Of a DNA stretch of 64,000 nt, positions 22,683 to 29,940 are shown piece after piece. Origin of the DNA: Octopus vulgaris (taxonomy: Eukaryota); contig OX597838.1 of assembly GCA_951406725.2 (NCBI GenBank), forward strand, positions 43,400,001 to 43,464,000, written 5' to 3'. Below the pieces are notes generated by a model. It worked only from the letters and a program-made list of their open reading frames with translations. It had not been told where the DNA came from and ran no database searches. The position numbers were made by a program, and so were the translations under genes. Every line of letters starts with the position of its first letter. The stretch's first letter is position 1.

Positions 22683-23078
22683 TGGCTGTGTGGTAAGTAG
22701 CTTGCTAACCAACCACATGGTTCCGGGTTCAGTCCCACTGCGTGGCATCTTGGGCAAGTGTCTTCTGCTATAGCCCCGGGCCGACCAATGCCTTGTAAGT
22801 GGATTTGGTAGACGGAAACTGAAAGAAGCCTGTCGTATATATGTATATATATATATGTGTGTGTGTGTGTGTTTGTGTGTCTGTGTTTGTCCCCCTTTCA
22901 TTGCTGGTGTGTTTACGTCCCCGTCACTTAGCGGTTCGGCAAAAGAGACCGAGAGAATAAGTACTGGGCTTACAAAGAATAAGTCCCGGGGCCGATGTGC
23001 TCGACTAAAAGGCGGTGCTCCAGCATGGCCGCAGTCAAATGACTGAAACAAGTGAAAGAGTAAAAGAGTAAAAGAGTA
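22683..23078 (+). mobile_element. SINE family B
   Basis: Homology to 9912-10296. Confidence 0.85.
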
Positions 23079-23303: not shown

Positions 23304-23344
23304 AAATAGAAACTCCATTTCTTCAATTCACTATATATATATAT

Positions 23345-23866
23345 ATCAACAATTGAGGGAAAAATTAATTAATTAATCAATTTCACCAAGTGTTCAGTAT
23401 GTAAAAGGACCATTTAAGGCGAATTCAAAATATTACATTATATAATTAGGGCTTAGTAAAATAAATTACTCTGCCACATACTGAACTTAGTAGAAATAGC
23501 AGCCAAAAAATTTGTTGACACTGTTAGTTTGGAGTGGTTCATCTGAAGCGACAAGTTCGCTGATAGGTAAAGTTCCTTCTTTTTAGTGTTTCCAAATCCA
23601 AATTAAGAAATTTTGAGCTGACGAAAGAAATGCTGATTTTATTTGGCTAATCTTGAAACGTTGACGTACTCAAACGATCTATGTACTTGTGATATTTTTC
23701 TGTATTTACCTCCAAACCTTCGTGAGCTGTCTGGAGTAAACATTATCTGAGAGAAATTTTCTTTAAGTAGTAGAAATGCTAAGAAAATTTTTTTTGGCTG
23801 CTATTTCTACTAAGTTCAGTATGTGGCAGAGTAATTTATTTTACTAAGCCCTAATTATATAATGTT
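23345..23866. mobile_element. Non-coding inverted-repeat element carrying a hammerhead, inserted in (TA)n
   Basis: Perfect 76 bp arms 23435-23510 / 23790-23865; (TA)n on both sides. Confidence 0.8.
23612..23674 (+). ncRNA. Complete type I hammerhead ribozyme
   Basis: TTTGAG-CTGACGA-AAGA..TCTT-GAAA-CG(TTGA)CG-TA/CTCAAA; all core residues present, 6 bp stem I, predicted cut after 23668. Confidence 0.85.
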
Positions 23867-23898
23867 ATATATATATATATATATATACATACGTATAC

Positions 23899-23957
<59 letters not shown>

Positions 23958-23965
23958 CGTATACG

Positions 23966-24006
<41 letters not shown>

Positions 24007-24014
24007 GCACAAGC

Positions 24015-24407
24015 AAGTAATGTTCGCGTAGCTACGTCAACATGGCTGTTTCGTTCGAACGGACCTTATTACGATCTTTTGACCCCAAGAGGACATCTCT
24101 TCTGGCTGGTTAATGATGCATAACTGGCTCCGATATATTGCTAGCAAGGGGACGAACCCCTACCACCTTCGAGCGACGAGAGCAGAGTAACAGTCTGGTT
24201 TCGGACTATTTCTGTCTCTCCTCAGTACTAGACCCTTCGTCTGCTAGAGATGGCAGTAGCTCACCTCTGCTCGCATCGTATACAAATTGAATCGGAGCCA
24301 GTTATGCATCGTTAACCAGCTCGAAGAGATGTCCTCTTGGGGTCAAAAAATTGCAGTAAATTTCGCTTGAACGGGACAGCTATGTCGAAGTGGTTACGAA
24401 CATTACT
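24015..24407. mobile_element. Foldback/MITE-like element with ~120 bp inverted arms
   Basis: 24015-24134 vs 24292-24407, e.g. TTTTGACCCCAAGAGGACATCTCTTC / GAAGAGATGTCCTCTTGGGGTCAAAA. Confidence 0.8.
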
Positions 24408-24519: not shown

Positions 24520-24922
24520 TTTTCTTTTTTTTTTATTTGTTTCAGTCATTTGATTGCGGCCATGTTGGAACAGTGTCTCAAAGGGTTTTAGTCGAGGAAA
24601 TCAACCCCAAGACTTATTCTTTGTACGCCTAGTACTTATTCTATCGGTGTCTTTTGCCGAACCGCTAAGTTATTGAGCCATAAACACACCAACATCGGTT
24701 GTCACGCGATGGTGGGTGAACGAACACAAATACAAAGACACACAAACACATACATATATATAAATACGACGAGCTTCTTTCAGTTTCCGTCTACCAAATC
24801 CACTCACAAGGCTTTGGTCGACCTGAGGACATAGTAGAAGACACTTTCTCAAGATGCCACGTAGTGGGACTGAACCTAGAACCATGTGGTTGGGAAGCAA
24901 GCTTCTTAGCACACAGCCACTC
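24520..24922 (-). mobile_element. SINE family B
   Basis: Reverse-complement homology. Confidence 0.8.
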
Positions 24923-25059: not shown

Positions 25060-25680
25060 CACTTGTTTAATAATTTCTTGATTGATCACGTTATAGCTTG
25101 TTGGCGAGAAGCGGATATTGATATTTCACCAGTATCGCGGGAGTAGCTAACCTTAACGTTGTGGCTATTAAAGAGTTTACGATACTGATGGTTCCTTGAG
25201 AAATGCTATCTAATTAGGAACAGGGAACTTCTGGTGGAAACATCTATACAACATGGAGGATTGAACCAAATGGCTTTCCTTTTCTTACTTTCTTCAGGTT
25301 TGGCGTGGGGGATCCTCCGTTTACAGCAACATCAGTAAAACTATTCCTCGCTAGTGCTTCGTTATAAATGAGGGCAGCCAAGGTGAAGTCTTTTCTTTCT
25401 TGCGATTTATTGGAGATTCGTCGACTGAAAACTGTGACTAGGTTCCTAATTATATCAGGTGGTTGATTGGGGATTCTACGGATGCGAACAGTTTCCTCAG
25501 TATTTTTCTGTAGGGATAAGCATTTGTCGTCTGTCATGAGGTCGTCTAGGGTGATATCCAAGAAGACAGTCTTGGTTAGGTCGGTGATGATAGTCATACT
25601 CAGGCAGAATCTTTTGAAGGTATGTTTATAAGATTCTTTGTGAATTTATCCATGACGTAGGCGTTCATATTGCTCCTAAA
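25060..25680 (-). mobile_element. Penelope-like element RT C-terminal fragment, decayed
   Basis: VFLDITLD, NQPPDIIRNL...RRISN, WFNPP, NHQYRKLFNSHNVKVSYS typical of PLE RT thumb/linker. Confidence 0.8.
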
Positions 25681-28224: not shown

Positions 28225-29940
28225 CATATGCGGGTACAAGATATCATATTTGAAAATGTCTCTAAATGTGTTAACATATTGGATGTAACATTAAATTTGG
28301 ATAACGGCTTATTCTTCCCCTATCATAAGCCTAACAAAACTATTAAGTATATCCACGCCTTATGAAATCATCCCCCAAAGTGTCATTAAGGGGATAATTA
28401 AAGGTATGTCGATAAGAATATCTAATTTATCCGCTAATGACAAAATATTTAACGAGTTTGCACCCCTTTAGTCAGCGGTTTTAACAGTAAAATATACGAT
28501 ATTAAAAACACAATATTTAAAGACAAATTAGGCAAACAGTTTCCAAATGTTACGAATTCTAACATTGACACAAATCCTATGAACAATTCCACACAATATA
28601 GAAACCAACAACACTTTAGAAGACTCTGTAGATTTTTCAAGTATAGCAAAAACGATCCGGGGCAGAATAGGAACTGTTCTGGAAGGAAACTGAAAGTTGT
28701 ATGGTTTACACCCCACTCCTCCCTTCAGGTAAGAAGCCTCCCTAAGGTATTTTTTAGCATTATCAATAGGAACTTCCCACCTGGTCATAAATACCATTCT
28801 ATATTTAATAGATCGTCTCAAATTATCCTATTCTAACACACCCAATCTTGGATCTATCATCGCAGCCGATAATAGACTTAAACTTAGAAATAACGAAACC
28901 ATTAGAGATAACCCAACTGACCCCAATAGAGAGAACAATAATAAGGACTTGGATATCAAAAATAGTAAGACTAAACTCGGAAACAAAATAAAAATATGTA
29001 ATTGTCGTAATCAGGAATTTTGTCCCCTTAAAGGCTTCTGTTTAAGGAGAAATTCCGTATATAAAGTTGAAACGTCAATCCGAAATGAACTAAAAAAAAT
29101 TTACACAGGTCGCACAATCGACTTTAAAAGTAGATCTAGGGCGCGTATAAACTCTTCCACGAAACAAAAAATTCAACCACACCAGCAACCTACATCAGTA
29201 AATTAAAAATGAACGACAAAGAGTTCAGCCGGAATTGGTCTATAATAAGGGAAGCGACACCATCGTAAGACACACGAGAAGAATTGCGATTTATGCACGA
29301 AGGAGGCGATCCACAGAATCCGAGTCAACAAAAATAGTTCACTTAATAAGATATCTGACGTCATAATTACCTGTAGACAACAAATATTTTTCAACGTTTA
29401 AATTTTTCAAAAATAATTAAACTCTAGGATTCTAATTTAGCCTTCCTTCATATTATGGACTCTTTTAAAATTTCATATTATATATAGCGCCGTAATACAT
29501 TTCAGCCTTTCAACATCTTATACCCAAAGAAAATGGTCCGATCAAACATTCGATTTTTAAAAACCATTTAACCCACCATTTCTTTTAAAGCTTTTGTGAA
29601 TCTATTCGCGTTGATGAGAGAAATATAGAGTGTTGCTATGGTTTGAGTTAGCTCACTCAGAGCAACCAATATCTTTTCGAAACTGTCGTAAGACTTTACA
29701 CATAGATTTTGTACGTTTCAGATTCCGTATGAATCATTTTACATTCGCTTTATCCTCCTCTTCATTGATTCAAATTCGAACACCCGGACTTTGCAAGGAC
29801 ATTTATGGATTTATATTTTTATATATTTATATTTAGGAATTTTTTATGTGTTTATAAATTTTTATAGGTCTATGAATTTTTATATATTCAGAAATTTTCG
29901 TGTATATGTATGTATTTATAAATTCTTCAGAAATTTTTTT
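28222..29940 (+). mobile_element. Penelope-like retroelement, 5' truncated (RT thumb + GIY-YIG endonuclease + pLTR), pseudogenised
   Basis: NILDVTLNLDNGLFFPYHKPNKTIKYIH, VVWFTP, HKYHSIFNR, CNCRNQEFCPLKGFCL..VYKVET..IYTG..FKSR, CDLCTKE; begins in (TA)n. Confidence 0.88.
29611..29694 (+). ncRNA. Decayed hammerhead in the Penelope 3' pLTR with long structured stem II
   Basis: TTGATGA-GAGAAATAT..GTTGCT..TGAGT/ACTCA..AGCAAC..ATATCTTTTC-GAAA-C-TGTC-G-TA; C3U change and weak stem I. Confidence 0.65.

Follow-up and report, generated by a model that had tools for sequence, protein, structure and literature searches.

The window analysed here, a stretch of 64,000 nt of Octopus vulgaris contig OX597838.1, carries an insertion of about 520 bp (from 23346 to 23865 or 23870) between two (TA)n tracts (Table 1). 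It consists of two pieces of one 565-bp repeat unit set back to back. Positions in the unit (u) refer to a reference unit from locus L002, which was mapped onto the loci. The two arms overlap by 2 nt at 23509-23510, and the exact base of the short end of the direct arm is blurred by TA (u472-481). Both flanks are (TA)n, so no target-site duplication can be read. The insertion had been described as an element without an open reading frame (ORF) and indeed holds no frame of at least 120 aa; the only two frames recorded both pass through the (TA)n on its left, one of them reaching into its first 23 bases.

Table 1. Coordinates of the insertion and its hammerhead motif in the window (u, position in the 565-bp unit)
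Feature	Position	Strand	Remarks
Entire insertion, two arms of the 565-bp retrozyme unit	23346..23870		Set in (TA)n; u401-565 minus, then u120-481 plus
Inverted arm, u401-565	23346..23510	-	3' end is the long end, u565, and abuts the left TA tract
Direct arm, u120-481	23509..23870	+	3' end is the short end, u472-481, and abuts the right TA tract
Exact 76-bp inverted repeat, left copy	23435..23510	-	Overlap of the two arms
Exact 76-bp inverted repeat, right copy	23790..23865	+	Overlap of the two arms
(TA)n target tract on the left	23332..23345		Read from the sequence
(TA)n target tract on the right, interrupted	23866..24004		Read from the sequence
Type I hammerhead motif	23612..23674	+	u223-285; G5 at 23620; cleavage predicted after A23668 (u279)
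Helix III	23658..23667	+	3-pair hairpin as monomer; 10-bp self-complementary duplex as dimer

The earlier note saw the insertion as framed by a perfect 76-bp inverted repeat whose identical arms implied a recent event. The repeat is real, and it extends to 81 bp if one mismatch is allowed. It does not frame the element, however. Mapped onto the unit, it is the overlap (about u401-477) of the inverted and direct arms and not a terminal repeat, and the insertion reaches 89 bp past its left copy. The identity of the arms by itself therefore says little about age. The youth of the element stands on other evidence: judging from the nearest copies, which differ from the direct arm at 1-3 of about 323 sites, the retrozyme family is young. 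The copy in the window holds a single ribozyme and lacks u1-119 and is therefore unable to release unit-length RNA alone; it is likely a dead end.

The direct arm carries a type I hammerhead motif, with helices I-III around a CUGANGA/GAAA/UH core and helix I open. All core nucleotides claimed earlier are present, with CUGACGA at 23618-23624, GAAA at 23655-23658 and a GUA triplet that ends at the predicted cut position. A script also confirms the coordinates of the 6-bp helix I (23612-23617/23669-23674) and of the extended, two-part helix II, in which AAGA/UCUU (23625-23628/23651-23654) and GCUGA/UUGGC (23632-23636/23643-23647) are interrupted by a 3x3 internal loop. Helix III has three pairs, counting A15.1-U16.1, and a UUGA loop. 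The closing pair of helix II is A-U instead of G10.1-C11.1; seven of eight aligned variants have A-A at this position, and A-U also occurs in several hammerheads of Penelope-type elements (PLEs) of the same genome.

A descriptor with thresholds fitted to this very hammerhead finds one site in the window and none in 300 locally shuffled windows, and a looser one adds a weak minus-strand match near 61.3 kb. The Rfam hammerhead models give no match at the gathering score and none at E<=10, and the 63-mer hammerhead alone is no more stable than its shuffles (z -0.88). Judged by sequence comparison, the real support for the hammerhead is its conservation across subfamilies, not Rfam or the stability of the 63-mer. 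The earlier note had regarded a core that varies among copies as fatal to the ribozyme; in 11 units, 10 of the 11 core positions are invariant, compared with 78 of 222 positions upstream and 103 of 145 in the 3' domain, although the choice of footprint loci for their hammerhead region inflates hammerhead conservation. Covariation inside the hammerhead alone is weak (one pair, with 31 of 500 shuffles as high). A candidate covariation of positions 11.1 and 17 was rejected, since some subfamilies have U at both.

A search of the 2.8-Gb genome returned 1,610 candidates; the 40 that were scored are about 99% identical, and several lie 565 bp apart. The copy-number search suggested earlier finds the exact hammerhead 22-mer 453 times, with no match to the reversed control. 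A relaxed pattern that includes sister subfamilies matches 669 times, and the shared 3' end of the unit 3,789 times with fragments counted too. A second 21-mer count, meant to measure truncation at the cut site, gave 168 matches and is confounded by a polymorphic site. Mapped with the unit, the loci show tandem and back-to-back pieces, and non-coding tandem units with a type I hammerhead in consecutive units occur, for example, at L002, L037 and L150. The LINE remnant beside the unit in L002 was rejected as a part of the element, its junction being unique among the places scored.

Sister subfamilies have units of 545-571 bp and are about 74-90% identical. The array of one sister (approximately L263:2330-7570) comprises about 9.6 units of 545 bp, with its short end in (TA)n. 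Seven of its eight full units are identical, and the nearest other unit examined is 17 substitutions away. Identical tandem units could alternatively reflect local amplification or assembly. Arrays of up to about 9.6 units contain no ORF.

The unit is predicted to be highly self-paired. Folded as a circle it reaches -151.8 kcal/mol (z -7.3 against 25 shuffles), and two sister units give z values of -5.2 and -5.6. A consensus rod in 11 units has 140 pairs, 20 of them with changes on both sides, part of which relatedness can mimic without selection. The hammerhead is predicted to lie on one branch of this rod with its core paired to the helix III strand, an inactive form.

The ribozyme had been called monomer-competent and its stem III a real tetraloop hairpin. 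The three pairs and the UUGA loop are formally there, but helix III is self-complementary over all of its ten bases, two G-U pairs included, and the dimer duplex is predicted to be far more stable than the hairpin (-10.8 versus -0.7 kcal/mol). Sister subfamilies have perfect 8- or 10-base palindromes at helix III, some with a loop of only 2 nt. Predictions put the active monomer fold at 7% in the 63-mer, 4% in a 23590-23700 construct, 5% in the full unit and less than 0.1% in the window insertion, with magnesium and tertiary contacts left out of the calculations. Monomer competence is thus doubtful, and the ribozyme, on balance, probably cuts better paired than alone. In the literature, a palindromic helix III is tied to dimer cleavage (PMC4209133), and an axolotl motif of two pairs plus tetraloop shows 22% cleavage in monomeric form and far more in dimeric form (PMC7229834).

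Coral and mussel retrozymes with similar helices cleave well as monomers (PMC7229834), and a full core, a formal three-pair tetraloop helix III and exact 76-bp arms would also suit a free-standing, monomer-active ribozyme in a MITE-like element bounded by terminal inverted repeats. This reading is very improbable. The overlap of the arms varies between copies, many of which have a single arm, and this refutes a MITE with fixed terminal inverted repeats bounding every copy. The insertion in the window runs on beyond the left repeat arm, the palindromic character of helix III extends across subfamilies, and few molecules are predicted to adopt the active monomer fold.

From 100 loci we obtained 84 distinct insertions; 80 of these are one- or two-armed and gave 133 arms, and four complex ones were omitted. 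The 3' ends of 127 arms fall at u468-490 or u555-565, and 125 of the 133 end in a TA-rich flank. Adjacent two-armed insertions (n = 51) combine one short with one long end in 44 cases, the others being one short-short, one long-long and five of other kinds. In sister family B, a short end is combined with a long one in all 16 two-armed insertions (30 loci sampled; five at a locus edge omitted, five single-armed, duplicates merged). Arms cross the cut site without stopping: of the 133 arms, three have a 5' end no more than 5 nt away from it, against about 2.6 expected for an even spread, in loci whose selection for the hammerhead region biases them against arms stopping there. More than 565 nt are spanned by 43 of the 133 arms, the longest measuring 1,239 nt, and arms that pass u1 run on into u565 of the unit and not into an ORF.

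The two arms of an insertion also share sequence variants. In the close subfamily (67 of the 84 insertions), opposite arms were compared 85 times at inherited sites; both carry the minor allele in 66 of these comparisons and they disagree in 19, whereas random pairs share it in 842 of 7,644 (11%). Most rare variants are confined to one arm, and five of 67 occur in both. Arms longer than the unit and alleles common to both arms fit the copying of one circular or multimeric RNA.

The template could instead be a linear, uncut multimeric transcript, with a hammerhead that is largely silent or protein-dependent and with no circle. Arms that run across the cut site are what uncut RNA would give, and a helix II closing pair of A-U in the window and A-A in most sisters, not G-C, points the same way, as do eight of nine Xenopus dimers that failed to cleave (Li et al. 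2026, 10.64898/2026.07.22.740005) and the Poseidon element, which uses unprocessed RNA in vitro and has a hammerhead that needs protein (PMC11167929). We nevertheless regard a purely linear template as rather unlikely: the core is conserved while the upstream unit diverges, in the predicted rod the two cut ends come close to each other, and young subfamilies retain long arrays of identical units, which truncation from linear templates would erode.

The genome has intact ORFs of 722-1,091 aa that combine RT-like and GIY-YIG-like parts with a cysteine linker, many of them accompanied by their own type I hammerheads. We take these ORFs to be of Neptune type from their motifs. Atlas look-alikes from RT and GIY-YIG families support the label, as does PMC8557442, and Pfam and PDB searches with the ORFs gave no useful match. 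Among them, several young Penelope-type families (L093, L183-L202) have intact frames of 800-1,090 aa and long type I hammerheads with a palindromic helix III; their proteins are candidate enzymes.

The PLEs leave a footprint similar to that of the unit. Two autonomous families have two fixed end points each, at +126/+247 and +119/+243 from the hammerhead, and 19 of their 20 terminal arms stop at one of these, all in (TA)n. Two-armed autonomous loci (n = 6) have unlike ends in four cases and like ends on both arms in two (L184, L095). The similar two-end footprint in intact Neptune-type PLEs makes Penelope-type copying of the unit likely, and the hallmarks of Penelope mobilisation are all found in the retrozyme family, namely partial tandems, an inverted 5' copy, a tail at one end and a microsatellite target. 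The Penelope partner is inferred by class only.

This likeness raises the question of whether the unit is the pseudo-LTR (pLTR) of an unsampled autonomous PLE and its copies are 5'-truncated insertions of that element, not a free retrozyme. The genome's autonomous elements have the same footprint and hammerheads of similar build, in which a long helix II is interrupted and helix III is palindromic, Xenopus retrozymes are linked to pLTRs (Li et al. 2026), and PLE sampling is partial, with 150 of 5,666 and 134 of 13,336 candidates scored. Within this sample, however, none of the 82 PLE loci examined has the unit as a pLTR; PLEs at L063-L112 and L183-L202 match it only as separate insertions. No RT/GIY-YIG ORF lies within the unit or is joined to it in the loci searched. 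PLE-like coding DNA occurs near the unit in three unit-bearing loci searched, in every case either separated from it by a microsatellite or carried as a passenger fragment. At L206 a microsatellite separates the unit from an old PLE remnant, and L271 and L277 hold a two-armed fragment carried in a PLE 3' UTR, so that all three were rejected as PLEs joined to the unit. The sole unit joined to coding DNA is the one beside the LINE remnant, arms that pass u1 re-enter an ORF-less unit, long arrays are free of ORFs, and the whole unit folds as one rod. A pLTR origin is accordingly quite improbable.

By its genomic characters the 565-bp family is a metazoan non-LTR retrozyme, not an autonomous PLE and not a MITE. 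We conclude that the locus is, with high probability, a single two-armed and truncated insertion of a 565-bp tandem hammerhead repeat of this kind, young and non-coding, likely copied into (TA)n by a Neptune-type PLE enzyme. The unit, its tandem and inverted copies, the two fixed 3' ends in TA tracts, the shared arm alleles, the conserved rod and the palindromic helix III are observed. In the route that we propose, tandem copies would be transcribed and paired hammerheads would cut the multimer after u279 into monomers, which likely close into 565-nt circles with the ribozyme mostly folded off. A Penelope protein would nick both strands of a TA tract, and reverse transcription would start at two UA-rich sites of one RNA and proceed along or around it over distances that vary. 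Back-to-back joining of the resulting two cDNAs would leave their overlap as the inverted repeat.

We further speculate, at somewhat short of an even chance, that a viroid-like 565-nt circle parasitises Neptune-type enzymes. A protein pair would prime both nicked TA strands at two fixed UA-rich sites, roll round the circle and write every tandem and back-to-back copy. The palindromic hammerhead would cut only in multimers and be off in the circle, and the conserved 3' hairpin domain (u420-565) would act as a docking signal.

Metazoan non-LTR retrozymes (PMC7229834; Li et al. 2026) likewise have a non-coding tandem unit of low GC with one type I hammerhead each, a highly self-paired predicted circle, monomer-to-multimer copies and autonomous PLEs alongside. 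Circular retrozyme RNAs are described in PMC7229834, and the axolotl retrozyme hammerhead HHR_Amex2 resembles the octopus motif in its helix III of two pairs plus a tetraloop. The octopus family differs in its long interrupted helix II. Its unit of 565 bp exceeds the 170-400 nt of PMC7229834 but lies within the 51-972 bp of Li et al. Dispersed two-armed (TA)n insertions with two fixed ends also set it apart from the retrozymes of PMC7229834, in the excerpt of which the words "inverted" and "microsatellite" are absent.

Neptune-clade PLEs with pLTR hammerheads (PMC4209133; PMC8557442) share with the octopus family partial tandems, an inverted 5'-truncated copy, a tail on one end, (TA)n targets and a palindromic helix III with a longer helix II. 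Unlike them, the octopus unit has no RT or GIY-YIG ORF, a tail of about 84-93 nt compared with 30-40, A-U or A-A in place of the conserved G10.1-C11.1, and no sequence match to the pLTRs sampled. In Poseidon of Anolis carolinensis (PMC11167929), the Penelope protein cleaves AT-rich DNA on both strands, extends them and initiates at two internal positions in the RNA, which define the tail; as in the octopus family, insertions do not end at the site cut by the hammerhead. Poseidon differs in that it is autonomous and belongs to another clade, and no circle is proposed for it in the excerpted text; its start sites lie in an AC-rich stem-loop lacking homology to the target, whereas both octopus ends are TA-like.

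Penelope mobilisation of animal retrozymes and the copying of circles have so far been proposed from co-occurrence and sequence kinship, according to the excerpts of PMC7229834 and Li et al. 2026. In the octopus family the genomic footprint is sharp: there are two fixed ends, each found on a different arm, some arms exceed the unit in length, and alleles are shared. It agrees with the two start sites that were determined in vitro with a Penelope protein. Together with intact candidate enzymes in one genome, it makes the route directly testable. The window copy taken singly is otherwise ordinary. In the literature on hammerheads and retrozymes in octopus or cephalopods we found no description of the 565-bp family, which may already be catalogued as a repeat, Repbase and Dfam lying outside the search.

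Sequencing runs labelled as four organisms (A-D) contain at least half of the unit's words, and because of this the family may be common to related species. None of the holders of the unit is registered as RNA. Contigs from four runs guessed to be RNA cover parts of the unit and are uninformative on level, strand and ends. In contigs of such runs, L002:1233-1262 (u420-450) shows mostly A>G differences, which could be double-stranded RNA editing or sister-family alleles. Genomic copies of the window's subfamily have no excess of fixed A-to-I edits (A>G 26 versus T>C 32).

A young autonomous Penelope-type family at L283-L294, with copies 97-99% identical and a 722-aa frame in L284:959-3124, contains, within a microsatellite-rich 3' UTR, a sister-unit fragment with two arms (L284:3469-3678). 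The fragment is present in 12 of the 12 copies fetched and is most simply a passenger.

The window contains further repeats. Broken Penelope-type ORF remnants lie at 25244-25645 (minus strand) and 28453-29206 (plus strand), and the second, used as a query, finds many relatives. Just right of the TA tract is a MITE-like imperfect inverted repeat with 108-nt arms (24027-24134 and 24291-24398) that are 82% complementary and 156 nt apart. An inverted pair of a 196-nt interspersed repeat (22683-22878 and 24724-24919; 86%) presumably represents two SINE copies.
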